From Balanoglossus misakiensis (lineage: Eukaryota; Animalia; Hemichordata), in NCBI GenBank assembly GCA_040954595.2, contig CM082595.2, positions 8,290,317 to 8,354,316 on the forward strand: a DNA stretch of 64,000 nt. Reading direction: 5' to 3'. Shown here in pieces: positions 13,550 to 61,307 of the stretch. The position numbers were made by a program, and so were the translations under genes. Each line of letters starts with the position of its first letter. Position 1 is the first letter of the stretch. Below the pieces are notes generated by a model. It ran no database searches. It was not told where the DNA came from and worked only from the letters and a program-made list of their open reading frames with translations.

Positions 13550-14634
13550 TAATATTGAAGGTCAGAATGCTTTTGATGAGAGAACAATACACCAGTTGCA
13601 AAGTATCTTGACTAACATAAAAATGATTGAATTTTCTGAAGAAGATATAATCTCGCAGTTGGTGTGTTGTTTCCTCATCAAAAGCATTCTGACCTTCAAT
13701 ATTATTCTGTTGAGCTTTACATGCAATCTAGTCTATATATGTTCAGAGGCGATTTTATCATCGGTAACAGATCCTAAATACTAAAAGAGCATAAAATGAC
13801 TGCGACAGATACTTTGTTAGTTGTAACAGGTGTGAAATAAGAATTTGGATAACATTGACAGTATTTTGGCTATTGTTGGGGGGGGGGGGGGGGGTGGAGC
13901 AATAAGTGATTTTGAAACCCCATGTAACACCTGTCTTACCATTAATATGACTGCATTTATGGTACCATAAGGAATGCTAACAAAATGACTGGGGAACCCT
14001 GGTTACATTACCCTGATCACCACAATGGTTCAGTCCAACTGCATTGTTTTCTATGGTAAGGTTGGACCTCTGAAGAGGGAATTGGGGTGGAAGGGTTAAA
14101 AAAAAACACTGACTGACAATACTGCCAATAACAAAATATTGTTTTATCTTCTCTTTGTATACAGCACACCAATACAGAAACATTGTATATTGATCTGCAA
14201 CTCTCCTCCATATCCTTTGCCAAGTCAAGATAGTATTAATTACAGTGGATTTACTGCAGAACAATTGGCTGCCATGTTGGGTGAGGTAAGTAAGCGATGT
14301 AAAACATTTCATACAACACTGCATACTAACAATAGTCATATCAACCTGACAAGGGAAGATGAAAAAAAACACTAAGCCCCATTGAACAGCTGTATTTTCT
14401 TGGAATCTGGTTTTATAATAAACTTTGATTGATTGAAATGTGTTTTACATCTAAATGCATCGTTTTGGGAACATTTTCTAGAATGTATGTGATTATTAAA
14501 TTGAACTTGTATATTTGCTGGGGGCAACTATTTTTTCATTAAAGATGAGGAATGCCCAATGTTCGGATTGTCTTCAAAAAGATGACAACAACTCAAGTCT
14601 CAAAAACTCTTTGTTTTGAATTTTGAATTGTTTT

Positions 14635-17600
14635 TGTTGCATCAGTAACGACTTCACATGTGGATGCCACATTTTGATTCTTAGCAAATGTTGTATTTTG
14701 ACAGAGAGGAGTCCATTCCTCAATCATATCACCCCGCAAACTGCCTGAACTCCAAAAACTTAGCAACAAAGCGTGAAGTACAGATGGTACCTATGAAGGA
14801 TTATGCGGCTGATCCACACCACATGATACTTCTCAAAGGTTATCAACTTGCTGGTAGGTATCTGTTGCTATGCAAATATTTGCAATCATACCATCCTGAT
14901 TCTAAAGTTCACAGGTCAAATATATAACTTGTTTATGTGGCCATTTACAACCAATTCATCATTTTGTGGTTTGTTAAAATGTTACTCGAAATCGGTACTT
15001 CCATGAAATGGTTGTAATATATTTAATAATATTTATTACACATCACAAATTATTATGCGCTCTTGGTTGGCTAATACTAAATATGATAGTACTTCATGAC
15101 CTCTGCACACGAACTGTGCCTTACAGAAGTTATTTTCGCGAGTGATGCAGTGTATTCTGTTGCAGTACTTTCACAAGCCAAGCATTTTATTCCCCATCAT
15201 GTCAATGCCTGGCCAATGAATTACACATCCTCCTGAAAATTGCTGGTAGGTGAGAAATCAGTTTCCATGGTTGCATCCTGGATGAAACACTGGTACAGGT
15301 TCAAGACAAGTTTAGTGACATTGTGTAAATCCACAGAAGAATTTCACATCAACTCTATAATCTTCAATTTTTCTCATGATTGTGTTTCAGAAAAATCTGT
15401 GTCAAGTGGTGATACATAAGAGGTTGCCATCGTGAAACCTAAAACCATAGCAACCACTTCAGTGTCTACAACCACTACCACAACACAGCCATTGAAACCC
15501 GCATCAACAGTTACCATGTTTACAGCATCTACCTCCAGTATGACCTCAAATCCTCTCAAATCAACTGTTGGAAGTTCAACTCCAGGTAAAGTCTCCAGTG
15601 TTGCTTATGAGACATTTGTCAAATTAGGTCCGCACATAATTAGACCACCAAGTGAAGTGTGAGATATAGTAGAATATTGCCATGTTGATCTTCACTACAA
15701 TATTAGTTAAAGTTATATAGCACTCTGTGATCAACGAGTTGAAAATACAGCATGAGCTGTAGTCCCCTTCATCAGCTGTACACGTAGAATGAACAGAGAA
15801 ACAGAGAATCATGGGGTATTCAAAGTAGGAAATATGTGCAGGACCAGGTGCATCGATCAGAAAAAATTCCTACAGTGGATTTTCTATCTGAGGATGGTGA
15901 CTTCATGACCGCGATATTGTGCCCTTGAGCGAGGCACTTTACTTCTCATTGCTCTTGGGAGACTGGCTTTGTAGAGGTGATTTGCACCTGTTCTAGTCTT
16001 TCTACTAGACATATTTTCTGTGTTTGCGATTGATGAATTACTGTCTAATGGGAAATTTTTGTAAACTTCGCGAGAACCAACAAATGCGAATTAAAAAGTC
16101 ATATAAAAATGTTTTTCGGGGATATTGGTGAAGTTAGTGAAATATAAGAATGCGAAATTTAATTGTAGCATAACAGCTGTCTCTATTGATATTGCGAAAA
16201 TTTCTTGTCACAGAAATTTCCCGTTTATTTAGTGTGTGTGTCTGTCAGTCTGTTGCATCAGTAACGACTTCACATGTGGATGCCACATTTTGATTCTTAG
16301 CAAATGTTGTATTTTGACAGAGAGGAGTCCATTCCTCAATCATATCACCCCGCAAACTGCCTGAACTCCAAAAACTTAGCAACAAAGCGTGAAGTACAGA
16401 TGGTACCTATGAAGGATTATGCGGCTGATCCACACCACATGATACTACTCAAAGGTTATCAACTTGCTGGTAGGTATCTGTTGCTATGCAAATATTTGCA
16501 ATCATACCATCCTGATTCTAAAGTTCACAGGTCAAATATATAACTTGTTTATGTGGCCATTTACAACCAATTCATCATTTTGTGGTTTGTTAAAATGTTA
16601 CTCGAAATCGGTACTTCCATGAAATGGTTGTAATATATTTAATAATATTTATTACACATCACAAATTATTATGCGCTCTTGGTTGGCTAATACTAAATAT
16701 GATAGTACTTCATGACCTCTGCACACGAACTGTGCCTTACAGAAGTTATTTTCGCGAGTGATGCAGTGTATTCTGTTGCAGTACTTTCACAAGCCAAGCA
16801 TTTTATTCCCCATCATGTCAATGCCTGGCCAATGAATTACACATCCTCCTGAAAATTGCTGGTAGGTGAGAAATCAGTTTCCATGGTTGCATCCTGGATG
16901 AAACACTGGTACAGGTTCAAGACAAGTTTAGTGACATTGTGTAAATCCACAGAAGAATTTCACATCAACTCTATAATCTTCAATTTTTCTCATGATTGTG
17001 TTTCAGAAAAATCTGTGTCAAGTGGTGATACATAAGAGGTTGCCATCGTGAAACCTAAAACCATAGCAACCACTTCAGTGTCTACAACCACTACCACAAC
17101 ACAGCCATTGAAACCCGCATCAACAGTTACCATGTTTACAGCATCTACCTCCAGTATGACCTCAAATCCTCTCAAATCAACTGTTGGAAGTTCAACTCCA
17201 GGTAAAGTCTCCAGTGTTGCTTATGAGACATTTGTCAAATTAGGTCCGCACATAATTAGACCACCAAGTGAAGTGTGAGATATAGTAGAATATTGCCATG
17301 TTGATCTTCACTACAATATTAGTTAAAGTTATATAGCACTCTGTGATCAACGAGTTGAAAATACAGCATGAGCTGTAGTCCCCTTCATCAGCTGTACACG
17401 TAGAATGAACAGAGAAACAGAGAATCATGGGGTATTCAAAGTAGGAAATATGTGCAGGACCAGGTGCATCGATCAGAAAAAATTCCTACAGTGGATTTTC
17501 TATCTGAGGATGGTGACTTCATGACCGCGATATTGTGCCCTTGAGCGAGGCACTTTACTTCTCATTGCTCTTGGGAGACTGGCTTTGTAGAGGTGATTTG

Positions 17601-17842
17601 CACCTGTTCTAGTCTTTCTACTAGACATATTTTCTGTGTTTGCGATTGATGAATTACTGTCTAATGGGAAATTTTTGTAAACTTCGCGAGAACCAACAAA
17701 TGCGAATTAAAAAGTCATATAAAAATGTTTTTCGGGGATATTGGTGAAGTTAGTGAAATATAAGAATGCGAAATTTAATTGTAGCATAACAGCTGTCTCT
17801 ATTGATATTGCGAAAATTTCTTGTCACAGAAATTTCCCGTTT
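14635..17842 (+). repeat. near-identical 1.6-kb tandem duplication (period 1616)
   Basis: 14635-16226 matches 16251-17842, separated by a 24-nt filler. Confidence 0.95.
15835..15990 (+). mobile_element. SINE fragment with CORE/V-type conserved box
   Basis: gtgcccttgagcgaggcacttt motif typical of animal SINE central domains. Repeated at ~17530 and ~29540. Confidence 0.4.
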
Positions 17843-20019
17843 TACAGTTCATAAATAAATCAACTAGATCTTTTTACTGCAGATGCCACACCAACTAATC
17901 ATCTGTTACCTGGACGACCAAGTCAAATTGGAAGTCAGTCTCCACAACAACTGTCATCCTCTCAACAGAAACTGACTCAACCGAGTCAGCCCCAGATGCA
18001 GGGCCAAGGTAAAAGGTCATCAATGCCTGTTGCCCAGCCTACCAGTTTACCAAACCAACCAGTATCCACTGTCACAGCAAACAGGACACAACAACCCAAT
18101 GTGACTGCCTCAAGTATCCCCATGAGACAATTTTTGTCCACTCAGGTACAGTTGTTGTCTATGTGATTTAAATTAGCTGTTTCTAGTTACCCATCTTGTG
18201 AATTGAAAGCTTTTTATGACTGTTTCACATAGCCTTGTGTTACCATTTTCTATACAGTAAACTATTGTTTCAAAACACATTCAAAACTTCTGTTTTGGTT
18301 GCTAGAAACCCACTCTGTGAATGCAAAGACTCTTTTGGATAATGCCTGAGACTCAGTGATCAATTTCAATTTTTAATGAGATTAATGTTGATAAGCCCTA
18401 ATGTGGGTATGTGTGTTGAAAATAGGACTTAGAGAGTTGCAAGCTCAACATCGAATCAAAAATTGAAGTCATGAATTTAAAATGGGGTTTTGAATACTGG
18501 CCTTGATAATGCTTCATATTAACTAGGTTTGTTACTCTTTTTGGACAGGCAACTTCACCACCAAAGATGACTTCCCAGCATGCACCAGCTGCTGCACTGA
18601 AAGCCGCAGAGGGTGTCATGCAAATGGCAAATGCTAGTCAGTTCAGTAAGATGCCACCAATTGCTGCTGTGAATCCTATCAACTCACAGTCACGACAGAA
18701 ATGGCCACAAAGAGGTAGGTACAGTCAAACCTGTCTATACTGGCCAGTCAAGGGACTTCCAAAACTGACATTTATAGACAGGTGGCTTCTATAGACTGGT
18801 CAATAAATGTGCAATGTACATGTACATGAAATGAAACAAAGTTGCCACTACATAGAGGTGGCCACAAACACATAGTTGACTGTCATATATGTTATGTTGC
18901 CATGGCAGTCATTTACCATGAGTTCGATTATACATTGCCAAAACCGGAGGAAAAAAATATTCAAGTTCCCCTTTTCATATTCTCCATCAATGGTATAATA
19001 CGCCAGTGTCATGACCACACACAACTTCCACCCTGCTTGTAGCCACGAGAGTGAAAAAAACCTCACCAATATGAACAATCGGTCTCTATCATTTATTCAT
19101 TTTGGGCGAGTTTTTATGCTCATATCATTCAAGCGGGATGGAAATTGTGTATGGTTGAACATTCATTCACTACATATACATATGTACATTAACATAAAAT
19201 GTCTCTTGTATCAAACATAATGGAAAAAAAGGGCAGCGAGAGAGAGACTTTGTCCCTTTAATAGAAATGTGCATCTATTTCAACTATTACTTCTGTCTTG
19301 AACAATCTTTCCTTAATAGAGTGGTGTACTGATTAGAGAGATGTCTTATTGACAGGTTTCACTGTATAATATCAACATTTTCAGTTCCATAATCCTTCAG
19401 TGTTTGCCAGAGAATTTCGACAGCACTCAAAAACTTTCTCTGCCATACTCACAATAAGAGAAAGCTTGCACCTGTGTTTTACTGTTAAATTACCATACCA
19501 CAAAAAACAGTTTGTTTTTGCGAGCAATAAAGTTTTCGCGAAATATTGGAGAACCAACGAACGTGAAAATAAAAAGTCGCGTGAAATGTTTTTCGTAGAT
19601 AAAGATGCAATGAAATACGAGAATGTGAAAATTAATCCTCACGTAACAGTTTGGTCTTTTAATGTCGCGAAAAATTTCCTTTCATGAAAATAATCCGTTT
19701 TACAGTCTGGTAATATTGAAGGTCAGAATGCTTTTGATGAGAGAACAATACACCAGTTGCAAAGTATCTTGACAAACATGAAATGATTGAATTCTCCAAA
19801 GAAGATATAATCTCGCAGTTGGTGTGTTGTTTCCTCATCAAAAGCATTCTGACCTTCAATATTATTCTGTTGAGCTATACATGCAATCTAGTCTATATAT
19901 GAACAGAAACATTGTATATTGATCTGCAACTCTCCTCCACATCCCTTGCCAAGTCAAGATAGTATTAATTACAGTGGATTTACTGCAAAACAATTGGCTG
20001 CCATGTTGGGTGAGGTAAG

Positions 20020-21079: not shown

Positions 21080-21413
21080 GGTCAGCGATGTAAAGGAGTA
21101 GCTCTAAGTGAGCGCTGTTTAAGGCGCGGTGGGGACAGTAGGGGTTCGTGTGCCAGCCAATCATATGCTGTCTGAAGCCCGCCGGAGGGAAAGTTTCCCG
21201 GGCTTGTCATTGCCACTTTTGCATTCGGCGGAGCAGCAGGCTGGACACGGGACGCTATTCCCTTCCGTAGTGTCAAGCGACACTGACAGCGGACTGTACA
21301 TTTATTCAAGTGGTACACTTTGACTTTCACGATCCTTGAGACAGCGGAACTGACCCATTCAGAGGTATTGTCACGATTTCTGAGATTATCGCTAACCTAC
21401 CTTATCCACAGTT

Positions 21414-22760
21414 TTGAGACTTGGCTCGAACGCTCCCCCGATTGACACTGCTACTTTTGCCGCGTCGGACTGGCGAGAAAAAAGGGCAACGCTGAAGACA
21501 CCTCAAACGCTACCTACGGGTAGGCCCGTGCCTGATCCTTCGCTCGTTATATCTGGGTCTGTACCTGAATCAGTGCCCGCGCCGGACTCTGAAGTACAAA
21601 ACTGGGCCGATCAACATGGGATCTTACTGCCAACTCTGAATGTGTTAGCGGCCAACGGGTTTACTACGATGCAAGTGGTCAGATTAATTCAGCATGACGA
21701 TTTATATTTCATGAAGATATCTCCTCTTGCCCAGTTTCGGCAATTGGACGCAGCGCTTATCGAGCTTGCCTCACAGAAACGTACGACCGCTCGACGGGCA
21801 GATGTGGCGGGAGATCGAGATGCCACCCAAGTCGCTGACCGGAACCGTGCGCCCTCGCATACGACGGCCGGACAACAATACACAGACAACATGGTGGCCC
21901 CCAGTACATCAGACTCCCACGAAGCCAGTTCAGCGAGCGCGAAGACCGTCGACTCCGAACAGGCACAACAGGCAAGTCGAGGAGAAGTTGGACTGGACTC
22001 GCTGCTTCAGGCGTTGAATATCAACGCGGGACCACTGAACAATGACCTGACCCCGCCCAGGAAGATACCTCAGCGCATGGACTTAGAACAAATGGTGTAT
22101 TTAAAACCGGCGTCCATGGCAGGTTTGAAATTTTATGACATTGTTGACTATGTACCAAGCTCCCTACAGGCTAAGGTCGACCAAAAAGTGCTGGCCTTTG
22201 GAGCGGGGGAAAACAAACTGGTGTTTGAATCGGGTCCATCAAAACCAAAATTAGGGTCGGTGACCCCTCAGCAATGGTCTGCGGCCAACTCTCGCATTTT
22301 GTACGAACTCATTTCAAAGCACAATTACAACCTTACTCAAGTACAAGAGTATTCAGCATACACCATTAAAGTGTGTCAACTGGCAGACCGATATGAATGG
22401 GTGTCTGTTTTGCATTATGATCGGGAGTTCCGTAAACTACAAGCAGCCTATAATTTACCATGGGGAACTGACTCCCAACATTTGTCCACTGTGTATTTGA
22501 GGGAAAAAGGGGCAGTGCAAAACAAAGCATGGGGGTCATATCAGGTCAAAAATGGTAAGTCTACTTCTGCGGCGCCCGTTGATGTCAAGACAGGACAACC
22601 CATTTGTATCGGTTACAATAAAGGGGATTGCAAGTTCGGGGTAAAATGTAATTACAGTCATATATGTTTGGATTGCAAAAAGGGCCATTCCAAAATCAAC
22701 CACCCAAACTTGTCAGGGGGGAACCAAAGAGCGAGAACAAGCCGCTTCAAGGGTAACTGA
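21414..22760 (+). CDS. Ngaro ORF1 (gag-like) with C-terminal Cys/His zinc finger and putative N-terminal SAM-like domain
   Basis: 448-aa open frame with WVSVLHYDREFRK and CIGYNKGDCKFGVKCNYSHICLDCKKGH motifs typical of Ngaro ORF1. Start codon uncertain. Confidence 0.8.
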   Translation: MRLGSNAPPIDTATFAASDWREKRATLKTPQTLPTGRPVPDPSLVISGSVPESVPAPDSEVQNWADQHGILLPTLNVLAANGFTTMQVVRLIQHDDLYFMKISPLAQFRQLDAALIELASQKRTTARRADVAGDRDATQVADRNRAPSHTTAGQQYTDNMVAPSTSDSHEASSASAKTVDSEQAQQASRGEVGLDSLLQALNINAGPLNNDLTPPRKIPQRMDLEQMVYLKPASMAGLKFYDIVDYVPSSLQAKVDQKVLAFGAGENKLVFESGPSKPKLGSVTPQQWSAANSRILYELISKHNYNLTQVQEYSAYTIKVCQLADRYEWVSVLHYDREFRKLQAAYNLPWGTDSQHLSTVYLREKGAVQNKAWGSYQVKNGKSTSAAPVDVKTGQPICIGYNKGDCKFGVKCNYSHICLDCKKGHSKINHPNLSGGNQRARTSRFKGN

Positions 22761-24510
22761 CCTGCCCACCCCTCCCCCCTTCCCTTCAGCCTTACGTTAT
22801 GAAGCCTGGGTTACTGAAATTTTCCCCAATGACCCAGACAAAGATTTTATTCTTGACGGGATTGAACAGGGTTTTTGCATTGTCGATCCTGGTTCTAATA
22901 TCCGCCCTGCTGAGACAAATAATTACAAATCTGCAACGGACCCCTCATTTCGTGTTGCAGTGGAGGAACAAATTTTGGTTGAGTTGAGTGAAGGTCGTTA
23001 TGAGGTCACATCTGACAAACCAACTATTGTAAGCGCACTGGGGGCCATTCCCAAACAAAACTCTCCAGATGTTAGACTGATTCATGATTGCAGTCAACCG
23101 CCCAATTTTGCAGTCAACGACTATGCAACTAATCCTTCGTTTTCCTTCCAAACCTTTGGGGAGGCCACCAAATTAATTAAGCCAGGGTCCTTTTTAGCTA
23201 AGGTGGATTTGAAGTCTGCATACAGGTCTGTCCGTATCCATCCATCTATTAATAGTGCTACTGGGTTGAAATGGACCTTTTCTAACATGCAAGAGGCTAC
23301 TTATATGTTCGACACGAGGCTCCCATTTGGAGCCAAAAAGGCCCCCATCATTTTTCACCGTCTCACCCAAGATGTGCGTAGGATGATGCATCGCAAGGGT
23401 TATGTTTGTTTAGTGGTCTACCTTGATGATTTCCTCATTGTTGCAGATACTTACCAGGAGTGCCAAATTGCCCTGAACACCCTTATTTCATTGCTTCGTA
23501 AGTTAGGGTTTGCTATTGCTTGGGGGTAAGGTTGAGAGACCCACTCAACGGTTAGTATTTTTAGGTATTGAAATTGATACCCGCGCTTTTACTGTTGCCT
23601 TGCTGCTGCCAAAGCTTCATGAGCTTTATTCATTGCTGCTTATTTTTCACACAAAAACACGTGCATCCCGCCGCCAGCTGCAATTCCTTGCTGGGAAATT
23701 AAACTGGGCTTGCCAGGTCATTGTCGGAGGTAGGACTTTCCTCCGTCGCATCCTGGAATGCATTAATAATCTCCGCCAACCTTCTCATAAAGTTATCCTT
23801 GGTAGGGAATTTAAGGCCGATCTTGATTGGTGGATTCGCTTTTTACCACATTTTAATGGCACTTGCAAGATTCTGAATACAGACCCTATAACTGATGTGC
23901 ATACAGATGCTAGCAACACCGCTGCCGGTGCTTATTTTAGGGGGGATTGGGTGTACACCAGGTGGGCTGACTGGCCATCTACTTCACACTTCATATTAAT
24001 TACAAAGAGGTGCTGGCTGTTGCAGTGGCAGCACAAAGATGGGCACCTGTGTGGGCAAATCATAGAGTTGTAATTCACACGGACAGTATGTCTGCTATGG
24101 GTATGCTTAATAAGGGGACATGTCGCCATCCATTCATGATGTCTGTGCTTCGTTCTCTATTTTGGCTCTCAGCTTCTTACAACTTCAGCATTCAAGCAGT
24201 TTATGTTCCTGGTAAACTCAATCACATTCCTGATGCCATTTCCAGGTTGCATCAACCAGGTCAGTTCATGAGGTTGCATACACTGCTCCACCCTTATGGA
24301 GAGCTCCACCCCACCTTCACCTTAGCTAGCTTCCCACTTCACATGCCTTATACTGCTGCTACCTTTCTTACTCGTCAGATCCAGAGATCAAACAGCTGGA
24401 GGAACATCTGGATAGGGAAGTGGCCACATATAGAGGAAGTGCCTTTGCAGAAAATACACAGCGCACATACTCTGTCCACTGGAAGTCATACATCTCCTTT
24501 TGTGTTATGA
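22645..24510 (+). pseudogene. Ngaro ORF2 reverse transcriptase-RNase H, two frameshifts (~23526, ~23990)
   Basis: Motifs RLIHDCS, KVDLKSAY, LPFG, YLDDF, FLGIEID, TDAS, HINYKE, HTDS and NHIPDAISR are spread over ORFs 22960-23529, 23510-24073 and 24010-24510. The first frame is open back to 22645 and overlaps ORF1. Confidence 0.9.
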
Positions 24511-25385
24511 TGGGTTACCCCCCTTTGCCAGCCGGTAGTGACCTGGTTTGTCGTTACACAGCCTACTTAGCTCGCCGTCTAAAGTTCAACTCAGTGAAGC
24601 AGTATTTAAATATTATTCGTATTTTGCACTTAGAGCATGGCTTCGCCAATCCACTCCAAGACAATTGGCTGCTGACTATGCTGTTAAAGGGCATAGCCAA
24701 AGTTAAGGGAACTACAGTTGCCAGGAAGCTGCCTCTCACCCCCACATTGTTATTGGGCATTCACAGTCAGTTATGTTTTTCATCAGCCTTTGATTCTGTC
24801 TTTTGGGCAGCCTGCCTTGTGGGTTTCTTTGGGTTGCTGCGCAAATCCAATTTCTTAGTTCCTTCAGGCTCTAAGTTTGACCCAGACAAACATCTAACTA
24901 GGGCTTCCTTCCAGGTGCATGCATGGGGTCTCACCATCATTATTCAATGGACCAAAACGCTACAAACTCGGGATCGGGTTCTTCAAGTTCCTCTCCCATG
25001 GATTCGCAATCACCCATTATGCCCTGTTTCTGCAGTCCTTAGGGCATTTCAGCATTCTAAGGGGGCACCCCCTACAGGCCCAGCCTTTGTCATCCCTGCA
25101 GGTAATGGTAGCTTCCGCCCGCTCACTGTCCCACAGTTCACCTCAAAGCTCCGCACCCATCTTAGTCGCCTAGGGGTGCAGGTCAGTGAATATTCTTCAC
25201 ACAGTCTCCGTCGGGGAGGGGCATCCTGGGCAATACAGTGTGGGGTTCCCAGTGATATAATTAAGCTGATGGGGGATTGGAGGAGTGACGCATACCTTCG
25301 TTACTTGGTCCTCCCCCTCCCTTTCAAAGTTAACTCTGTTAAGCTTTGTGCCAAACAGCTTCCTTTTTCTACTTCTACATTGTAA
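24420..25385 (+). CDS. Ngaro tyrosine recombinase
   Basis: LLRKSN, TKT, CPV, SHSLRRGGA, GDWRSDAYLRY: catalytic R, K, HxxR, W and Y are all present. Confidence 0.92.
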   Translation: MATYRGSAFAENTQRTYSVHWKSYISFCVMMGYPPLPAGSDLVCRYTAYLARRLKFNSVKQYLNIIRILHLEHGFANPLQDNWLLTMLLKGIAKVKGTTVARKLPLTPTLLLGIHSQLCFSSAFDSVFWAACLVGFFGLLRKSNFLVPSGSKFDPDKHLTRASFQVHAWGLTIIIQWTKTLQTRDRVLQVPLPWIRNHPLCPVSAVLRAFQHSKGAPPTGPAFVIPAGNGSFRPLTVPQFTSKLRTHLSRLGVQVSEYSSHSLRRGGASWAIQCGVPSDIIKLMGDWRSDAYLRYLVLPLPFKVNSVKLCAKQLPFSTSTL

Positions 25386-27389
25386 GCAAGTTTTCTATGA
25401 CTACCACTACTATATTGGGTTTTTGGGAGAATTTTGTAGTAAACACAGACAGACTTCAACTGTCCATTAGTATGTGTTTTTGTCAGTATTAAAGTTTCCC
25501 CCAAAGTTGTGCCCAATTTGTGTGTCCCAGTGTGGTTTGTGTGTGAGAGCCAGTGTGCCTTAAGGAGTAGCTCTAAGTGAGCGCTGATTAAGGCGCGGTG
25601 GGGACAGTAGGGGTCCGTGTGCCAGCCAAACTTATGCTGTCTCAAGACCGCCGGAGGGAAAGTTTCCCGGGCTTGTCATTGCCACTTTTGCATTCGGCAG
25701 AGCAGCAGGCTGGACACGGGACGCTATTGACCCACCCTCCCACCACACATTCCAGGGAATTTCTGCCTGTCTTTGTTGCTTTATATTATTTATATTTATT
25801 GTATTTATTAAAAGCATTGTTTGTATGCTTTGCATTGTTTTCATAGTTCTTTTGATAGTGTAGTTTTCAGGGGGAGAATTTTGTAGTAAACACAGACAGA
25901 CTTCAACTGTTCATTAGTATGTGTTTTTGTCAGTATTAAAGTTTTCCCCAAAGTTGTGCCCAATTTGTGTGTCCCAGTGTGGTTTGTGTGTGAGAGCCAG
26001 TGTGCCTTAAACATTTCATACAACACTGCCTACTAACAATAGTCATATCAATCTGACAAGGGAAAATGAAAAAACACATCTTTTCAAACTAGCTTACTGT
26101 GCGGACCAATTTCATTAAGCTCCATTGAACAGCTATATTTTCTTGAATTCTGGTTTTATAATTAATTTTGATTGATTGACATGTGTTTTACATCTAAATG
26201 CATCGCTTTGGGAACATTTTCTCGTATGTATGAGATTATTAAATTGAACTTGTATATTTGCTGAGGGCAACTAAATGTTCAGTAAAGATGAGGAATGCTC
26301 AATGTTTGGATTGTCTTCAAAAAGATGACAACAACTCAAGTCTCAAAAACTCTTTGTTTTGAATTTTGAATTGTTTTTGTTGCATCAGTAACGACTTCAC
26401 ATGTGGATGCCACATTTTGATTCTTAGCAAATGTTGTATTTTGACAGAGAGGAGTCCATTCCTCAATCATATCACCCCGCAAACGGCCTGAACTCCAAAA
26501 ACTTAGCGACAAAGCGTGAAGTACAGATGGTACCTATGAAGGATTATGCGGCTGATCCACACCACATGATACTTCTCAAAGGTTATCAACTTGCTGGTAG
26601 GTATCTGTTGCTATGCAAATATTTGCTATCATACCATCCAGATTCTAAAGTTCACAGGTCAAATATATAACTTGTTTACGTGGCCATTTACAACCAATTC
26701 ATCATTTTGTGGTTTGTTAAGATTTTTATTACTCTAAATTGGTACTTCCATAAAATGGTTGTAATATTTATTACACATCACGTATTGTTATGCGCTCCTG
26801 GTTGGCTAATACTAAATATGACAGAACTTCATGACCTCTGCACACGATCTGAGGCTTAAGGAAGTTATTTTCGCGAGTGATGCAGTGTCTTCTGTTGCAG
26901 TACTTTCACAAGCCAAGCATTTTATTCCCCATCATTTCAATGCCTGGCCAATGAATTACACATCCTCCTGAAAATTGCTGGTAGGTGAGAAATCAGTTTC
27001 CATGGTTGCATCCTGGATGAAACACTGGTACAGGTTCAAGACAAGTTTAGTGATATTGTGTAAATCCACAGAAGAATTTCACATCAACTGTATAATCTTC
27101 TATTTTTCTCATGATTGTGTTTCAGAAAAATCTGTGTCAAGTGGTGATACATAAGAGGTTGCCATCGTGAAACCTAAAACCATAGCAACCACTTCAGTGT
27201 CTACAACCACTACCACAACACAGCCACTGAAACCCGCATCAACAGTTACCATGTTTACAGAATCTACCTCCAGTATGACCTCAAATCCTCTCAAATCAAC
27301 TGTTGGAAGTTCAACTCCAGGTAAAGTCTCCAGTGTTGCTTACGAGTCATTTGTCATAATTAGACCACCAAGTGAAGTGTGAGATATTG

Positions 27390-27581
27390 AACACCTATTG
27401 CCTGGCCATGAGGGCCATAGCGGCCGTTTATTACACCCGAGGGGCTGTGAGTTACCAGAATCACATGCTATTTCTCGAGGCCGTAGGCCGAGGGAAATAG
27501 CGTATGATTCTGGTAACTCACAGCCACGAGGGTGTAATAAACGGCCGCTATGGCCCGAATATAGGCCAGGCTATAGGTGTT
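27390..27581 (+). repeat. ~190-nt imperfect palindrome (hairpin) with GTA triloop at 27483-27485
   Basis: Arms 27390-27482 and 27486-27581 are reverse complements apart from a few small internal loops and mismatches. Confidence 0.95.
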
Positions 27582-27791
27582 TTATAATAAACCTCATGCT
27601 AACAGTTTATGTTTGCAATATTGAACAAGTTTAATTAAATACCTTGAATACGAAATACAATAAATTCAACATGAACGGATGCTATAACTCGAATAAAACA
27701 GCTTACGGCTTATTATAATGTAATATGCAAAATTTGGTAAGCTGACAAAGTACAACTTTTGACAGTCAATTGGCTTCGGATTCCATAAAGC

Positions 27792-29153
27792 CTAATTGTT
27801 GTGGATGTTGACGACGCATCCATGAAAGTTATAGTTCACTACTTTCTTACTACCGCTCACTTCTTGTTGAGTAACAAAATTAACCGGCGGCGGCGGAGAA
27901 GAAGTAGTCAGTTCACTCAGAAATGACCGTTGCAAGGGCGATGCCATTATCGGAGCTAGCGACGACTGCGGCTGTTGTATTGTTTGTGCGCCTTCTATCT
28001 GTTCGTTTGTCGACGAACTTCCTTGAATAGCACTGGAAAGTGTACGGCTCATTTCTCGCTTCTTGTCTTCACCAACTCTGCTATAACTTCTGATACTGGT
28101 CTCTGATTTGTGACCACTAACTCCCATGATATGCCGTGCCTCGAAGCCTTTGTCGTCCAGCGTTGTCACAGTGGTAGCACGCAAACAGTGGTTGGTGTAC
28201 GTACGAGAACATTCAGCTTCGACAGATATTTTCTTCATTTTGTCGGCGAGCGTATTTTTACCAACTGCTATGCTGTCATACCAAACAGAGTCATCTTGAC
28301 TTTTCAGTGCTGGTTTTGGTCGCTGCCAAAAAGCCTCAGAGTTTGGGTTTAGCTTTGTTAAATACAATTCAAAAGACCAAACTGGACATAGCGAGTTTTC
28401 AGGAGTCTCGTACATCCTCCCTCCTTGACTCATTTCCGCGTCGTCTATACAGCCACGGTGATTTTTCGTCAGCATATCTTTACAGAGCGACACATATTTC
28501 AGGCCCGTTGAATCACGTTGGACGACGAAGTGCGACTTCGTCATGTTATGTAGATTTTCGCGGCCGCGATTGCATAGATACATCATAATATCAACGAAAA
28601 CCTTGTTTTGTAACCCGCGTGGCGTTGACTTGTCAAGTGCAGACGACAACATCATTTTTGTCATGTCATCTTTGGTAACGGGTTCTTTATGTTGCGTTGC
28701 ACCCTTACCCTCGCCTTTCAGTTTTACAAGCATTGCAGTGAATACATCATTGGCAGGCTTGAAAATCTCACTGTGGATGATGTCGGTGCCGCACTGTTTC
28801 AGAAAATATCGTTGTAAGCCATATCGTATTGTTATCATTGACTTACTCGAATACAGCTGTGCGTTGTTCTGTCGAACCCCAGCGTAGAAATCCCGCAGCG
28901 TGAGACACAAATCGGCTGGCGCAGTCTTTTCCACGTCGGATATGGTAGTACCAATTTCTTCACAAAACGAAGTAAAAATCCTCATTGCGTATTGAATTAC
29001 ATATTTGGTGTTACGTGAATCCTTGTTGTCGACAAGGTGTTGCAGTTCTTGCTCCGACAAAAGGGAAAATCTTGCAATTTTCTCTTTAGGTTGGCATACG
29101 ACATCTTCAGCGGTGGCCATTGTGCTAGCAGACGATGCGACGCTGATTGACAT
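27792..29153 (-). CDS. Crypton-type tyrosine recombinase (DUF3504; related to the KCTD1/ZMYM/QRICH1/KIAA1958 domain), 453 aa
   Basis: CNRGRE, TKNHRG, CPV..FELYL, FWQRP, WY…VGKNTL, YTNHCLRAT, SGHKSETSIRSY: full R-K-HxxR-H-Y set. Intronless and uninterrupted. Confidence 0.92.
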   Translation of the reverse strand: MSISVASSASTMATAEDVVCQPKEKIARFSLLSEQELQHLVDNKDSRNTKYVIQYAMRIFTSFCEEIGTTISDVEKTAPADLCLTLRDFYAGVRQNNAQLYSSKSMITIRYGLQRYFLKQCGTDIIHSEIFKPANDVFTAMLVKLKGEGKGATQHKEPVTKDDMTKMMLSSALDKSTPRGLQNKVFVDIMMYLCNRGRENLHNMTKSHFVVQRDSTGLKYVSLCKDMLTKNHRGCIDDAEMSQGGRMYETPENSLCPVWSFELYLTKLNPNSEAFWQRPKPALKSQDDSVWYDSIAVGKNTLADKMKKISVEAECSRTYTNHCLRATTVTTLDDKGFEARHIMGVSGHKSETSIRSYSRVGEDKKREMSRTLSSAIQGSSSTNEQIEGAQTIQQPQSSLAPIMASPLQRSFLSELTTSSPPPPVNFVTQQEVSGSKKVVNYNFHGCVVNIHNN

Positions 29154-29159
29154 GACCCT

Positions 29160-29250
29160 GTGACGTCACGTTGGTCACGTGACCGGTTTATATTTTTTCT
29201 GCTATTGCCCTATCGGTTCATAGTCGATTCTATTTTCCTATCACGTGACG
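29160..29250 (-). promoter_or_regulatory. candidate internal promoter of the Crypton-like ORF
   Basis: TATAAA on the minus strand ~35 nt before the ATG, TGACGTCA at 29161-29168 and two TCACGTGA palindromes (~29175, ~29242). Confidence 0.35.
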
Positions 29251-30129
29251 GATTCTGGCGAATCACGGCACAGTATTAGCATGAGGTATATTATAAAGTA
29301 GAATATTGCCATGTTGATCTTCACTACAATATTAGTTAAAGTTATATAGCACTCTGTGATCAACGAGTTGAAAATACAGCATGAGCTGTAGTCCCCTTCA
29401 TCAGCTGTACACGTAGAATGAACAGAGAAACAGAGAATCATGGGGTATTCAAAGTAGGAAATATGTGCAGGACCAGGTGCATCGATCAGAAATATTTCCT
29501 ACAGTGGATTTTCTATCTGAGGATGGTGACTTCATGACCGCGATATTGTGCCCTTGAGCGAGGCACTTTACTTCTCATTGCTCTTGGGAGACTGGCTTTG
29601 TAGAGGTGATTTGCACCTGTTCTAGTCTTTCTACTAGACAAATTTTCTGTGTTTGCGATTGATGAATTACTGTCTAATGGGAAATTTTTGTAAACTTCGC
29701 GAGAACCAACAAATGCGAATTAAAAAGTCATATAAAAATGTTTTTCAGGGATATTGGTGCAGTTAGTGAAATATAAGAATGCGAAATTTAATTGTAGCAT
29801 AACAGCTGTCTCTATTGATATTGCGAAAATTTCTTGTCACAGAAATTTCCCGTTTTACAGTTCATAAATAAATCAACTAGATCTTTTTACTGCAGATGCC
29901 ACACCAACTAATCATCTGTTACCTGGACGACCAAGTCAAATTGGAAGTCAGTCTCCACAACAACTGTCATCCTCTCAACAGAAACTGATTCAACCAAGTC
30001 AGCCCCAGATGCAGGGCCAAGGTCAAAGGTCATCAATGCCTTTTGCCCAGCCTACCAGTTTACCAAACCAACCAGTATCCACTGTCACAGCAAACAGGAC
30101 TCAACAACCCAATGTGACTGTTTCAAGTA

Positions 30130-34300: not shown

Positions 34301-37300
34301 TGATTTTGAGTGATATTGCAGTACAAAATTACAAAAAAATACTTTTTATTCCTTGGGGAAGTGTTAATTATTCAGAAAAAAAATATATTCTGAAATTTTC
34401 CAACTTCAGAATTTTTCCAACTGCAACAGAGGATATGATTATTTCATCAACTAACATGTAAAAGTTATTTAAAAAGTCAACTATGTCAATTAATGCATTA
34501 TCTGGAAAGATACCTTTTACGTGTCATGAATTACTATAGTTAATATATAGATAAAGGCCTTCATGCAATATTACATACACCAACACTTCATTTTGCAGTA
34601 CGTGAGCTGCGGTGTACTGGCTTTTGCACTTGTCTGAGCTGCAGAAAGTCTTATCATATTGAAATTTACAGAAGGCATTGTTCCCTGCTGTTTTAGAGCT
34701 GTGAGTTAACTGCGTAGAGCTGCCGTTTGTCTACACAATGTTCTAAAAAAGCTGTCAAAGAGAATTTGGTCTGCTGCCAACAAATGACAGCTCAGAACAA
34801 CCATTGCAGACCTGCAGATGAGCTGTGGATAGCTGACTCAGCTCTAAATCAGAGCTGCAGCAGCTCTCTGCAGATCTGCAGGTTTGGTAAGGGATGTAGA
34901 TGGTGAAAGGACGTGACAAGACTCGAATCTGAATCAGAATATGAATCTTGGGCTGTGGAACGTGAAACGTGAAACTTGAAACGTGAATCTTGTATTAGGC
35001 TTACCCTAATTTTTAATGGGTATATTCTTGATAACTCATCACCATGAATGATCATTTCAAAACTTAACAAGGCATATGGCTAAAGAGGATTCAGTGTTTG
35101 TGCACCTTCTATCTGCAATGCTGGATCTATTGACAGTTTTCAAAGGGGTTTAAAGACTCGTCTTTTTATTCAGTACTTTCTATTTCATTCCATTGCTTTT
35201 TTGGTTAATAGGGACTGTCTTTCAGAACTCTTTGGTTTGTTTCGTGTTTTTAAGTGTAATTTATTATCCTTTAAGCTTTCACTTGTTTTCTAATTTTATT
35301 ATTTTCTGTAGAAAATGCACTGAGATGTATGTGTATTATGTTTGTCAGGAAATAAATAATAATAAAATTAAAAATAATAAACTGTCTTTGATTTCAGATG
35401 TCAATGAATGTATGGAGAGAGCAGATCTTTGTGAAGGCCAGTGTGTGAATACAGCAGGCTCTTTTTATTGCACTTGTGTTGTGGGATATTGATTGGTCAA
35501 TTGAGAGTGTACAGGTAAGACCAGCACAATATGTGGGCAAAGAAAGGTCCTGTATCTGTAACTTTTGAATTTTTATTCAATATTATTCTGGGTGTCACCC
35601 ATCATTTCTTGTTCAGCTCGGTGAAGCTAGGTCTGTAACTTTTGAATTTTTATTCAATATTATTCTGGGTGTCACCCATCATTTCTTGTTCAGCTCGGTG
35701 AAGCTAGGTAAGCAATGTTGTTATTGTTTAAACATTGTATTCAAGCCTGGGTCTGGACTTGGATGCAATTTGTCAATAATAACAGTGATTGGTAACTGCA
35801 TGTTTACATAACTGGCTAACTGTTAAAAAGACCAGCTGTTCTATTTGGTGTGTGTACAGTACACATGCCATTGGCAGCTTATGGCTCAGTCAGTGTTTGC
35901 CTGTTGATTTCTCTATGTGTGTGTGTCTGTCTGTCTGTATATGTACTCCGGTGTAGACTTTTTTATTGTGTTATCCCTGAATGGGACCACTGTGTCCTTA
36001 ACGCGATGTTTTACACTCAGCAGCGATATTTTGTCTAACACGAGTCAAAATATCCCCAACTCGTCTGAGAAATCTTATCCCAGGTCCTAAGGTTGTGAGA
36101 CTAATAGAATCTCACACTCCCAAGGACTTGGGATCATATTTCTCACATGTGTTGAGGATTTTCTGTCCCAAACAAGCTGCAGGCGAATGTGGGACAAGAT
36201 ATCCCCGACGAGTGTGAGAAATACGATCCCAGGTCCTTGGTTTGTGAGATTATTTTTCTCACACGGTCACAAATTAGCCAAATTCGTTAAATAAATGACT
36301 CTTGAACTGTCATCTGGTACATTGTAGATTCAGTATCGCGTCATTGGATAACATTTAGCACATGTTGTTAAAGAACTCTTTGTCATCCAATCAGCGCTCG
36401 CATCATATACAGCTCTCGATTCAGTGAGAATGTGGGATTGATTTGTTCTCACACTCTGATCCAACACTCTCAGCATGCCAGGAGTGTGAGAATCTATTAC
36501 GAGTTTGAAATCTTAGGTGAAGAGTTTATCAATTTCACTGCCAACCCTGTAGGGCATTCTGGGATATGTGTTCATGCCAAAGCACAAACAGCCATGACCT
36601 GACAGCTCAGTTTGTAGATCATTTCTACAAATCCACAAAGAGACTCAAAGTTTAGAAATGTTGTGTCGGTTAGAAATATTAGACGTATCACTGTTAATAC
36701 TTTATTTCAAAGCCATGTGAATTTGTTCACATTAGGGAAATTTTTTAAAGGAAGGGAGGATTGGTATTGACTTGAATAATTACAATGGATGTATTGTCCA
36801 CCTCTATATAGTGCCCACTTTATTCTAGTCCCTGTGTAATTTATATCTACATTAATTGACTTTTCTACCAGGTATAATGGCCACCTGTCTATAAAGGCCA
36901 GTTTAGGAAAGTCCCTTTACTAGCCATAATGGACAGGTTTGACTGCACTTGTGTTGATTTCTGTCTGTAATATGTGTAACACAATCATAAAATTTTTCAT
37001 AAAGAGGGCACACTTCCAAAATAAGGTGTCATCTCCAAGCAGACAATGTGAAAAAGGAGGCCGGTAGGTTACAGAGTACTGCTCGAGCTCATCTACTTTG
37101 TTGTATACATGATACAAGTTGCGTGTAAAACTGACCTTACAATAAAATGTGGCTGTGGAAAGTCTGTCCCAACTATAGTGTTGATACACAAGACAAAGTT
37201 TTTACTCTTTGACCAACTGGCCTCATGTTTGCGTCTTGGAAGGGCACCCTCTTTATGAAAAAGGCATATGATATCACTACAAGGAATAAATTAACATGAT

Positions 37301-37793
37301 AGAACATTGCTGATTAATGTCATAGATCATGATAACATGAATGCATAGCAATGTTTTGGTACAATTTGGTACATAAAGAAATGGACTACTGTGACAGTAT
37401 TGACTCTGGGCACTACGTAGATGATTCCCAGCCTCAAAATTCTGACTTGCTTCACCGTTGGAAGAAGTCAGTTTTCAGGTTAACATGTATATTTGTACAG
37501 AGTGTGGCATTAGTGAGTGGTTGCATCACATCAATGCATGGCAAAAGGTCATCACTGTGTAAGACTCAGAAATAGAATTTGAATACAAATCCTATTAAAC
37601 AAAATATTCTAAAATTTACATGTTATTTTTAACACCTGTTTACTCCTATAAAAGTGAGTGCACGTGTTTTTGAGGTCTCTTCAATTCAGAAGCCACTGTG
37701 TAGGCCTTAGTTGGTGCATGCAGCTCGTAGACTTAGAAATTAAGTTTGGTTCAACTCAAACGCTTCAAGTCCAGTTGACCATCTCACACTTCT

Positions 37794-37862
37794 GACACTG
37801 GTGGGATTCAAACCAACGCCATCGAAATGACTGCAGGTGCCTAAAACCCCTTGACTGTAGGA
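37794..37862 (-). mobile_element. degenerate tRNA-derived (Leu-like) SINE head
   Basis: Minus strand reads ggcgttggtttgaatcccaccagtgtca, a B-box-like tRNA 3' half. Copies at ~42115-42180 and ~53550-53615. No complete cloverleaf. Confidence 0.4.
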
Positions 37863-38874
37863 CACAAATGCCTGACAGTGATATAACTATGTTATAATGT
37901 TACATCGACAATACATACGTTTGGGGATATGTTGTCTCAAATGATCAAATTGAGACAAATTATCCCCATCTTGTTATAAATCTGAGCCCAGGTGTCTTTG
38001 GTGTGAGATTCCAGTAGTCAAGAGTAGGCTTACCTTGAATAATGTAATGCTTGTAAATTATTTCGAATTTCTTCTTACCCTCCAGATATGAATGTCACAG
38101 TGGTGGAAATGCGTGCCAACACTATTGTCAGAATACCCATGGTAGTTATCTCTGCGCTTGCAGACAAGGCTTCAATGTGCTGGAGGATGGCCATGCATGT
38201 GCAGGTATGTAACTGTGGATATTGATCTCTTCTGTGGCTACACTGTTTGGGGATTGTATATTGCTATGGTTACAATCAGCTAAACTCACATCCTGTCAGT
38301 CCATTGCACACATTTTAAAATTTGAAATCAACCGCACACTCGTACTGAACACATGTTTGTTGAAATTGTATCTCAGAATTTTTCCATTTATAATTATGCA
38401 TAATATAAACAAATTAACAAATGTGAAAACTTATCTTTGAAAATTTGTTTGCAAGGGTGAAAAAGTAATCTGTTGTTTTAAAAATCAGACAAAGTTTTGC
38501 TGACAGGGTACACGAGTTTCAGGGGATTTTGTTAAAATGAGAATGATAGAGAGTGTTAAAATTCCTAGATTCTGAGATTGCCATGGATATTGAGGACTTT
38601 GACGTAAAAACAATTAATTGATCAAGAAATATGTGGTTAAGTATATGTGTGATCAACCTCACACTATACTATATGACTGTCTGATATATTTATGCACAAG
38701 TACAATGTATTTTCACTACTTATATGCATAACTCAATCAAATTAACATAATTTATCGACCTATAGCTAAATAAATTACCACAGCAAAGAATAAATATACA
38801 CTTAGAAAATTCATATAGTTTTCATCTCATTTTAAAGAAATTATAAATGCTTCTCCGAGGGGTACAATAATTTT

Positions 38875-39401
38875 TAGGGTAAGCCTAATTCAAGATTCAC
38901 GTTTCAAGATTCACGTTTCATGTTCCACAGCCCAAGATTCATATTCTGATTCAGATTCCAGTCTTGTCTAATATGTTTATGCTGCCGTAACCAGGGGTGT
39001 GAACGATTGTTTATTGTCCTCGATCCCCGCCCAAGCAAGGTTCCCCAAATATTGAAATTTACAGAAGGCATTGTTCTCTGCTGTTTTAGAGCTGTGAGTT
39101 AACTGCGTAGAGCTGCCGTTTGTCTACACAATGTTCTAAAAAAGCTGTCAAAGAGAATTTGGTCTGCTGCCAACAAATGACACCTCAGAACAACCATTGC
39201 AGACCTGCAGATGAGCTGTGGATAGCTGACACAGCTCTAAATCAGAGCTGCAGCAGCTCTCTGCAGATCTGCAGGTTTGGTAAGGGATGTAGATGGTGAA
39301 AGGACGTGACAAGACTCGAATCTGAATCAGAATATGAATCTTGGGCTGTGGAACGTGAAACGTGAAACTTGAAACGTGAATCTTGAATTAGGCTTACCCT
39401 A
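38875..39401. mobile_element. MITE with ~93-bp TIRs (TAGGG…CCCTA, hAT-like); second copy 43202-43728
   Basis: tagggtaagcctaattcaagattcacgtttc… mirrored at 39308-39401 and flanked by atttt on both sides. Only the right part survives in copy 1 (~34656-35008). Confidence 0.8.
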
Positions 39402-42400
39402 ATTTTTAATGGGTATATTCTTGATAACTCATCACCATGAATGATCATTTCAAAACTTAACAAGGCATATGGCTAAAGAGGATTCAGTGTTTGTGCACCT
39501 TCTATCTGCAATGCTGGATCTATTGACAGTTTTCAAAGGGGTTTAAAGACTCGTCTTTTTATTCAGTACTTTCTATTTCATTCCATTGCTTTTTTGGTTA
39601 ATAGGGACTGTCTTTCAGAACTCTTTGGTTTGTTTCGTGTTTTTAAGTGTAATTTATTATCCTTTAAGCTTTCACTTGTTTTCTAATTTTATTATTTTCT
39701 GTAGAAAATGCACTGAGATGTATGTGTATTATGTTTGTCAGGAAATAAATAATAATAAAATTAAAAATAATAAACTGTCTTTGATTTCAGATGTCAATGA
39801 ATGTATGGAGAGAGCAGATCTTTGTGAAGGCCAGTGTGTGAATACAGCAGGCTCTTTTTATTGCACTTGTGTTGTGGGATATTGATTGGTCAATTGAGAG
39901 TGTACAGGTAAGACCAGCACAATATGTGGGCAACGAAAGGTCCTGTATCTGTAACTTTTGAATTTTTATTCAATATTATTCTGGGTGTCACCCATCATTT
40001 CTTGTTCAGCTCGGTGAAGCTAGGTAAGCAATGTTGTTATTGTTTAAACATTGTATTCAAGCCTGGGTCTGGACTTGGATGCAATTTGTCAATAATAACA
40101 GTGATTGGTAACTGCATGTTTACATAACTGGCTAACTGTTAAAAAGACCAGCTGTTCTATTTGGTGTGTGTACAGTACACATGCCATTGGCAGCTTATGG
40201 CTCAGTCAGTGTTTGCCTGTTGATTTCTCTATGTGTGTGTGTCTGTCTGTCTGTCTGTATATGTACTCCGGTGTAGACTTTTTTATTGTGTTATCCCTGA
40301 ATGGGACCACTGTGTCCTTAACGCGATGTTTTACACTCAGCAGCGATATTTTGTCTAACACGAGTCAAAATATCCCCAACTCGTCTGAGAAATCTTATCC
40401 CAGGTCCTAAGGTTGTGAGACTAATAGAATCTCACACTCCCAAGGACTTGGGATCATATTTCTCACATGTGTTGAGGATTTTCTGTCCCAAACAAGCTGC
40501 AGGCGAATGTGGGACAAGATATCCCCGACGAGTGTGAGAAATACGATCCCAGGTCCTTGGTGTGTGAGATTATTTTTCTCACACGGTCACAAATTAGCCA
40601 AATTCGTTAAATAAATGACTCTTGAACTGTCATCTGGTACATTGTAGATTCAGTATCGCGTCATTGGATAACATTTAGCACATGTTGTTAAAGAACTCTT
40701 TGTCATCCAATCAGCGCTCGCATCATATACAGCTCTCGATTCAGTGAGAATGTGGGATTGATTTGTTCTCACACTCTGATCCAACACTCTCAGCATGCCA
40801 GGAGTGTGAGAATCTATTACGAGTTTGAAATCTTAGGTGAAGAGTTTATCAATTTCACTGCCAACCCTGTAGGGCATTCTGGGATATGTGTTCATGCCAA
40901 AGCACAAACAGCCATGACCTGACAGCTCAGTTTGTAGATCATTTCTACAAATCCACAAAGAGACTCAAAGTTTAGAAATGTTGTGTCGGTTAGAAATATT
41001 AGACGTATCACTGTTAATACTTTATTTCAAAGCCATGTGAATTTGTTCACATTAGGGAAATTTTTTAAAGGAAGGGAGGATTGGTATTGACTTGAATAAT
41101 TACAATGGATGTATTGTCCACCTCTATATAGTGCCCACTTTATTCTAGTCCCTGTGTAATTTATATCTACATTAATTGACTTTTCTACCAGGTATGATGG
41201 CCACCTGTCTATAAAGGCCAGTTTAGGAAAGTCCCTTTACTAGCCATAATGGACAGGTTTGACTGCACTTGTGTTGATTTCTGTCTGTAATACGTGTAAC
41301 ACAATCATAAAATTTTTCATAAAGAGGGCACACTTCCAAAATAAGGTGTCATCTCCAAGCAGACAATGTGAAAAAGGAGGCCAGTTGGTTACTGTTGGAG
41401 TACTGCTCGAGCTCATCTACTTTGTTGTATACATGATACAAGTTGCGTGTAAAACTGACCTTACAATAAAATGTGGCTGTGGAAAGTCTGTCCCAACTAT
41501 AGTGTTGATACACAAGACAAAGTTTTTACTCTTTGACCAACTGGCCTCATGTTTGCGTCTTGGAAGGGCACCCTCTTTATGAAAAAGGCATATGATATCA
41601 CTACAAGGAATAAATTAACATGATAGAACATTGCTGATTAATGTCATAGATCATGATAACATGAATGCATAGCAATGTTTTGGTACAATTTGGTACATAA
41701 AGAAATGGACTACTGTGACAGTATTGACTCTGGGCACTACGTAGATGATTCCCAGCCTCAAAATTCTGACTTGCTTCACCGTTGGAAGAAGTCAGTTTTC
41801 AGGTTAACATGTATATTTGTACAGAGTGTGGCATTAGTGAGTGGTTGCATCACATCAATGCATGATAAAAGGTCATCACTGTGTAAGACTCAGAAATAGA
41901 ATTTGAATACAAATCCTATTAAACAAAATATTCTAAAATTTACATGTTATTTTAACACCTGTTTACTCCTATAAAAGTGAGTGCACGTGTTTTCGAGGTC
42001 TCTTCAATTCAGAAGCCACTGTGTAGGCCTTAGTTGGTGCATGCAGCTCGTAGACTTAGAAATTAAGTTTGGTTCAACTCAAACGCTTCAAGTCCAGTTG
42101 ACCATCTCACACTTCTGACACTGGTGGGATTCAAACCAACTTCATCGAAATGACTGCAGGTGCCTAAAACCCCTTGACTGTAGGACACAAATGCCTGACA
42201 GTGATATAACTATGTTATAATGTTACATCGACAATACATACGTTTGGGGATATGTTGTCTCAAATGATCAAATTGAGACAAATTATCCCCATCTTGTTAT
42301 AAATCTGAGCCCAGGTGTCTTTGGTGTGAGATTCCAGTAGTCAAGAGTAGGCTTACCTTGAATAATGTAATGCTTGTAAATTATTTCGAATTTCTTCTTA

Positions 42401-61072: not shown

Positions 61073-61199
61073 TTAAGCTTTCACTTGTTTTCCAATTTTA
61101 TTATTTTCAGTAGAAAATGCACTAAGATGTATGTGTATTACGTTTGTCAGGATATAAATAATAATAAAATTAAAAATAATAAACTATCTTTGATTTCAG

Positions 61200-61307
61200 A
61201 TGTCAATAAGAGAGCAGATCTTTGTGAAGGCCAGTGTGTGAATACAGCAGGCTCTTTTTATTGCACTTGTTCTGTGGGATATTGATTGGTCAATGGAGAG
61301 TGTACAG
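61200..61307 (+). pseudogene. degenerate cbEGF exon (copy 4)
   Basis: 9-bp deletion removes ECM; a TGA after VGY is retained. Confidence 0.75.

Follow-up and report, generated by a model that had tools for sequence, protein, structure and literature searches.

A tail hairpin and an internal copy of the end junction in an animal CryptonA-type element point to a possible folded single-strand recombination site

Why should a transposon that encodes no reverse transcriptase (RT) carry, next to a hairpin at one end, a segment complementary to both of its ends, as DIRS1 retrotransposons do? The question is raised by an element on the minus strand at 27388-29296 of the window, the 64,000-nt stretch of Balanoglossus misakiensis DNA analyzed here, to which all coordinates refer. 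The host DNA around the element is a tandem repeat of which two other units in the window are empty, and comparison with these units (cuts after 15667 and 17283) gives an insertion of exactly 27388-29296, or 1,909 bp. The empty sites allow zero overlap on either side of this interval, and there is no target duplication; one X2 contig from the copy survey skips precisely the same bases. The hairpin is missing from the empty sites too and thus lies within the inserted unit. The repeat that supplies the empty sites (14635-17842 and 26009-30129) has a period of about 1.6 kb and contains a Ser/Thr-rich coding-like stretch.

The only long open reading frame within 27388-29296 is an intronless gene on the minus strand (27792-29120) for a 442-residue DUF3504 tyrosine recombinase (Pfam DUF3504, E 7.8e-11; Phage_integrase, 2.5e-4), and a survey of the element for open reading frames and domains found neither an RT nor another mobility gene, in agreement with the first-pass annotation, which had described an element devoid of RT. 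DIRS1-like gag, RT and RNase H are likewise absent from the interval. The protein also matches the QRICH1 domain, and residues R185, H311, R314, H337, and Y346, conserved in 34 to 37 of the 37 aligned proteins, are all present, so that the enzyme is apparently intact, judged from its sequence. The predicted model (pLDDT 79) is nearest in fold to QRICH1 and Cre, the integron integrase IntI comes only at rank 42, and structures of the Tn1549 integrase with its circular intermediate occur among the matches. The named relatives that match the recombinase best are from echinoderms and molluscs, at about 45 to 55% identity. The traits of CryptonA are found here, namely a DUF3504 recombinase with catalytic R-H-R-Y, no RT, multiple copies, empty sites, and nonautonomous derivatives, and by its protein we class the element as CryptonA-type; the 35-row tree built for it and its relatives contains no named reference.

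Downstream of the gene, at the near end of the element, lies a hairpin of about 190 nt (27390-27581, plus strand; 84% pairing over 195 columns) which, folded as DNA, reached -94.6 kcal/mol (z -21.9), a stability matched by 0 of 200 shuffled sequences. Its inner arm runs into an internal complementary segment (27572-27602, plus strand), of which 27572-27581 pairs with the near end, with a 5-nt spacer at 27577-27581, while 27582-27602 is complementary to the far end of the element (29276-29296, plus strand; the 5' end in gene orientation). Both the reported 20/21 reverse complementarity of these two 21-mers and the reported adjacency to the hairpin were reproduced, the latter as a gapless continuation at 27581/27582. 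The match stands out in the 64-kb window, in which the runner-up 21-mer on that strand reached 16/21 and the best on the other strand 14/21, the segment itself excluded. At the hairpin end, the spacer is 7 nt long (27388-27394, plus strand), and its first two bases, 27388-27389, have no partner in the internal segment.

Because a 21-bp complementary pair around a gene resembles terminal inverted repeats, 27582-29296 might be an ordinary small element with 21-bp TIRs that happens to lie beside an unrelated hairpin. We regard this as very improbable. The hairpin is missing from the empty sites along with the gene, a hairpin-less copy of such an element did not appear, and read depth is about equal at the hairpin end and the far end (256,563 and 273,822 in X1; 107,709 and 115,492 in X2), depth being no measure of copy number in this survey, which covered contigs from 4 runs and 2 samples. 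None of the loose ends listed falls at 27582, and 12 of 24 families of relatives combine the hairpin with the gene.

These families come from a scan of metagenomes that yielded 80 loci in 47 families, the window apart. Among the 37 loci flanked by 900 nt or more, 21 have a hairpin or palindrome of at least 80 nt downstream of the gene and the other 16 lack one; upstream of the gene, a palindrome of at least 80 nt was seen in 2 of 36 loci. Hairpins occur in all main branches of the 35-row tree, and the hairpin-less loci L015, L028, and L077 are close sisters of hairpin-bearing rows, which suggests that the hairpin is an old feature lost in damaged copies. To the far-end match we applied a test with 200 Markov resamples per locus. 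It drew on 25 of the 28 metagenome loci with hairpins (L024, L043, and L051, complex or cut, were left aside), of which 5 were too short upstream. In 15 of 21 hairpin loci (8 of 13 families; window included) the bases beside the inner arm matched a site 178 to 706 nt before the gene at p ≤ 0.025; of the 6 loci without a significant match, 3 had less than 400 nt upstream. As the families are related, these counts are not independent events, and metagenome assemblies of repeats may pair flanks of different copies (L011 and L013 share the 5' flank and not the 3' flank).

The copies of the element itself retain the same parts. In X1, depth inside the gene is 360 to 1,000, compared with about 250,000 at both ends, and this contrast, with ends hundreds of times deeper than the interior, shows short derivatives to be numerous. 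In the commonest, 27605 is joined to 29063; it keeps 29063-29296 (minus strand) as its 5' part and with it the hairpin, the internal segment, and the far end; the joint was present in all 4 runs from the 2 samples, at a depth of 12,453 in X1 and 9,154 in X2. Derivatives without the gene thus retain the fold in its entirety. Of 28 joints, the 15 listed include none of the circle type that would run from the far end to the near end, and a scan of viral contigs for circular forms gave no relative among 26 pattern matches.

The window holds a second gene-less family of about 360 to 390 bp, unrelated in sequence and built on the same plan, with a hairpin and an internal junction copy that is 2 nt short. 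One copy lies at 8343-8735 (copy at about 8366-8723), and there are four inverted ones at 36094-36456, 40414-40776, 50997-51368, and 61819-62164. An arm of a copy of this family is occupied by an element of about 580 bp (7764-8343) that is hAT-like by its pattern: its terminal inverted repeats are long, and its target duplication (7756, 8344) measures 8 bp. The window further contains two 4.3-kb tandem units that are 99% identical (35632-44296), with related partial copies at 50630-54417 and 61071-62164, and a palindromic array of 180-bp units in both orientations (2599-3474).

A first regularity concerns the two spacers. In gene orientation, the arms of the internal copy are 5 nt apart, while the spacer at the 3' end of the element is 7 nt long, in the relatives as in the window. 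The first-pass annotation had flagged the two bases "tg" at 27388-27389 as unexplained; the discrepancy is real, the joined ends being 2 nt longer than the internal copy. The limits set by the empty sites place "tg" inside the element, as its own terminal dinucleotide (NA in the YR orientation), and comparison with relatives, in which this dinucleotide is TA, AA, or CA in 15 of 17 distinct ends, agrees; no difference at these two terminal bases occurs among the copy differences listed. In the L009 family, an identical 7 nt stands ahead of different flanks in 5 of 5 loci, and four distinct 5' flanks carry four different 6-mers; the element keeps its own spacer from site to site, and that of the target varies. 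Two head-to-tail-type junctions, one at 8343-8390 in the window and one flanking L054 on its 5' side, likewise exceed their internal copies by 2 nt, each being a single event. L080 resembles such a junction, but its 5' flank is absent and we left it uncounted. Separately, copies of the second family of the 36094 type appear to have entered an older related copy at a site that resembles a junction.

The DIRS1-type retrotransposon of the same window (44283-49950; RT and recombinase frames; inverted terminal repeats 44301-44456 and 49763-49913) served as a control. Its internal complementary region (ICR, 49553-49651) spells its own end-to-end junction exactly, with a shared TTT, as had been stated for DIRS1 elements in general. 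The internal segment studied here is not an exact complement of the circle junction: it is 2 nt short and therefore cannot template the joined ends as the DIRS ICR does, and a single round of copying from it would remove the terminal dinucleotide.

This bears on one of the two routes proposed in the first-pass annotation, in which the RT of a DIRS or Ngaro element, acting in trans, would make cDNA from an RNA copy and, as in DIRS-1, the internal segment would serve to complete the ends of this single-stranded cDNA. DIRS-1 does need its ICR, an antisense single-stranded cDNA, and RT in trans (PMC7192593), and the same strand is favored here; the gene, moreover, is intronless, and the window contains other recombinase elements that do encode RT. 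The copy that falls 2 nt short where the window's DIRS ICR is exact weakens this route, however, as do the absence of long inverted terminal repeats (the two ends of the element are not repeats of each other) and the lack of significant similarity between the recombinase and the window's DIRS recombinase (best BLASTP E 0.8), and we consider it improbable. The other route, in which one strand of the element splints its own two ends, gained support from the conservation across families, from insertion at one edge of the target, and from strand-specific mismatches. Besides the DIRS element, the window holds an Ngaro-like recombinase retrotransposon at about 21093-26010, with gag, RT, and recombinase frames in pieces and split direct repeats (21093-21259/25562-25728 and 25425-25563/25872-26010).

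A second regularity is found in the target. Insertions occur in TAW-N6-WTA, a 6-nt spacer flanked by inverted arms; the element enters at one edge of the spacer, and nothing is duplicated. In the window, the empty site provides the left arm (27384-27387, plus strand), the spacer (29297-29302), and the right arm (29303-29307, plus strand). The left arm is common to other insertion sites of the family, 36 X2 contigs diverging from the reference before 27384 while sharing it, and the right arm is in the same register in 3 of the 4 listed flanks behind 29296-29297 of other copies. Among relatives, TAW stands 6 nt ahead of the insertion point in 7 of 11 flanks anchored automatically (background 3.7%) and in 11 of 14 after anchoring by hand, with differing spacers; both counts are given because the automatic procedure mis-set L014, L017, and L053-L058. 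The 7-nt spacer of the element is always on the hairpin side. Whereas attC has its AAC triplet, no microhomology is conserved next to the cut here, and the element lacks the GTTRRRY/RYYYAAC boxes and the separate IntI/attI platform of attC systems, its arms being TAW/WTA and its recombinase internal.

Tyrosine recombinases leave a 3'-phosphotyrosine on the arm side of the cut. With the 3'-phosphotyrosine on the arm and the cut at this edge, the single cut therefore falls on the strand antisense to the gene. An exchange of two strands requires matching spacers or leaves coupling sequences, and neither was seen at the insertions; one exchange completed by replication would yield exactly the product observed.

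Movement through a double-stranded circle, as in the Goodwin model or as in Tn916 with a mismatched joint, would make the hairpin and the internal copy an accessory site for inversion, cruciform formation, or amplification. The circle is the model proposed for Cryptons (PMC3212892; PMC13565253, in extract), clean excisions of a CryptonF in Chlamydomonas (PMC9977147, in extract) fit it, and both the Tn1549 structures among the fold matches and the second-family copies in junction-like sites speak in its favor. Against the empty site, however, the element has no terminal direct repeat of 4 to 6 bp shared with the target, a trait of fungal and oomycete Cryptons. Integration of such a circle without homology also predicts spacers on either side of the insertion or old spacers left behind, whereas the observed spacer is constant and always on the hairpin side. 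A circle of this kind further leaves unexplained the 32:0 strand bias of the mismatches described next, and we hold it to be possible but rather unlikely.

The third regularity lies within the hairpins. In 17 of them, one per family, we counted 47 isolated two-by-two mismatches, and tandem G-A pairs accounted for 32 in the antisense and 0 in the sense orientation, the other 15 being of different kinds. At least one tandem G-A occurs in 16 of the 17 hairpins, and 31 of the 32 are in a Y-GA-R context on the 3' arm; with slightly shorter arms, 29 of 41 two-by-two mismatches were tandem G-A. The hairpin of the window has three (plus strand), at 27410-27411 (partner 27557-27558; antisense to the gene), 27439-27440 (partner 27528-27529), and 27477-27478 (partner 27490-27491). 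Sheared GA-AG steps are unusually stable in DNA (PMC8163305, in extract), and read on the opposite strand the same positions form pyrimidine loops. The target edge and the mismatch bias point to the same strand, the antisense one. G-T wobbles show no strand bias (26 versus 23), and computed DNA energies favor the antisense strand in only 18 of 26 hairpins. Of 15 further palindromes in the loci, taken as a control, 3 carried tandem G-A in the same sense and 1 in the opposite sense; this control is weak, as the palindromes may be additional family members.

Three palindromes with same-sense tandem G-A (L056 1-184, L024 4120-4222, and L057 2410-2588) are probably neighboring short members of the family. 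In the window and in L004, L016, and L042, a tandem G-A located some 20 nt in from the hairpin end is followed by 1 to 4 extra bases on the inner arm, which recalls the extrahelical bases of attC. Palindromic repeats at 13550-13704, 19711-19864, and 9732-9811 are devoid of tandem G-A and are probably ordinary MITEs.

Computed RNA energies, too, favor the antisense strand (-156.4 versus -147.3 for the hairpin of the window), and tandem G-A also stabilizes RNA, so the signature names the strand and not the polymer. The hairpin could accordingly be imagined as an antisense RNA or a fold-back by-product, and its far-end match as a relic of template switching that plays no part in movement; that the match spans only about 12 nt in some families agrees with this. 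We find such an origin more improbable still than reverse transcription in trans. Gene-less derivatives keep the hairpin and the internal segment together, the 5/7 spacer rule and the match persist despite sequence divergence, and random micro-inversions by template switching would show no strand bias.

Our preferred reading, which we hold with moderate confidence, is that the tail hairpin and the internal junction copy form a folded, attC-like site used in a one-strand exchange resolved by replication. The antisense strand would fold when single-stranded, for example at a replication fork, with the internal segment keeping both ends in register. The recombinase would then cut this strand at both ends and close a one-strand circle, in which the 7-nt spacer of the junction would pair with the 5-nt internal spacer, leaving two bases unpaired beside the cut. 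The folded site would recombine with a single strand of a duplex TAW-N6-WTA target at the edge between arm and spacer, and replication would resolve the product, while the tandem G-A pairs would label the strand used. One-strand exchange followed by replication would therefore entail no duplication, no exchange of spacers, and a rising copy number. On the wider proposal that animal CryptonA elements are the first eukaryotic transposons recombining folded single-stranded DNA, as self-mobile attC-like cassettes with a 7/5-nt bulged core, a homology-free TAW-N6-WTA target, and a G-A-coded choice of strand, our judgment is evenly balanced.

Now that the ends are fixed to the base, a rule for the target is at hand, and the cut strand is predicted, an element whose enzyme is apparently intact makes the Crypton mechanism directly testable, and an available part of a 2026 review describes that mechanism as being without experimental demonstration (PMC13565253). 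Folded single-strand recombination is known for IntI and XerC/D (PMC5027507, in extract); if our reading is true, it occurs in animals as well, and a homology-free integration chemistry resides in a 442-residue enzyme. On the wider proposal, the ancestors of ZMYM2/3/4, QRICH1, and KCTD1 would have been structure-specific recombinases of single-stranded DNA. The structural signature could also serve to classify unlabeled hairpin repeats, possibly including Eulor5 and Eulor6, which are human Crypton relics (PMC5753468, in extract).

How does this layout compare with known systems? For animal Cryptons, the available text of Kojima and Jurka (2011, PMC3212892) states that terminal repeats were not found, with "n.d." in two rows of its supplement, and for CryptonA the corresponding extract of Krysinska et al. 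(2026, PMC13465315) speaks of short direct repeats only. We met no account of this layout in the literature on Cryptons that we covered; outside that scope lie Repbase entries, Repbase Reports, and subscription reviews, which may describe the hairpin. Within the literature covered, the end design and the mechanism it implies were not found in print, and the element is of the CryptonA kind by its protein. Like CryptonA as described in extracts of these two papers, it has a single DUF3504 recombinase, a length of about 2 kb, no RT and no duplication, abundant short derivatives, and an animal host; it departs from described CryptonA in its conserved hairpin, its internal copy of the junction, its defined target, and the signature that marks one strand.

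CryptonF-1_cRei of Chlamydomonas is active and excises cleanly yet gains copies, a rise for which simple excision offers no explanation (Lopez-Cortegano et al. 2023, PMC9977147, in extract). It uses a 5-bp terminal motif matching its target, and such a direct repeat is absent here. Strand-biased circularizing elements of Vibrio employ tyrosine recombinases, circularize one strand, and leave no empty donor site; they differ in being bacterial and site-selective, with four core genes and a variable 6-bp spacer, and the part of the report available makes no mention of a terminal hairpin (Nonaka et al. 2022, PMC9345347). Like DIRS1 (Malicki et al. 2020, PMC7192593), the element has an internal segment near its 3' end complementary to both termini and a tyrosine recombinase, and an antisense single strand is implicated. 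Unlike DIRS1, it has no gag, RT, or RNase H and no long inverted terminal repeats, its internal copy is 2 nt short, there is no shared terminal trinucleotide, and its recombinase is not detectably similar by BLASTP.

The integron cassette offers a further comparison. The attC sites are recombined as folded single strands; the bottom strand is used, and replication resolves the single exchange (Nivina et al. 2016, PMC5027507, in extract). Unlike in integron cassettes, the recombinase here is inside the mobile unit and belongs to the DUF3504 lineage, and the genomic targets are many; the hairpins are about 130 to 200 nt long, compared with 57 to 141 nt for attC in the same extract, and the strand marks appear to be tandem G-A pairs, with no conserved AAC microhomology. 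As in attC, an imperfect hairpin downstream of a gene is complementary to the circle junction and bears unpaired features that distinguish its strands, and as in integron cassettes this complementarity is carried by the inner arm; the bottom strand would be the one used, and replication would resolve the exchange.
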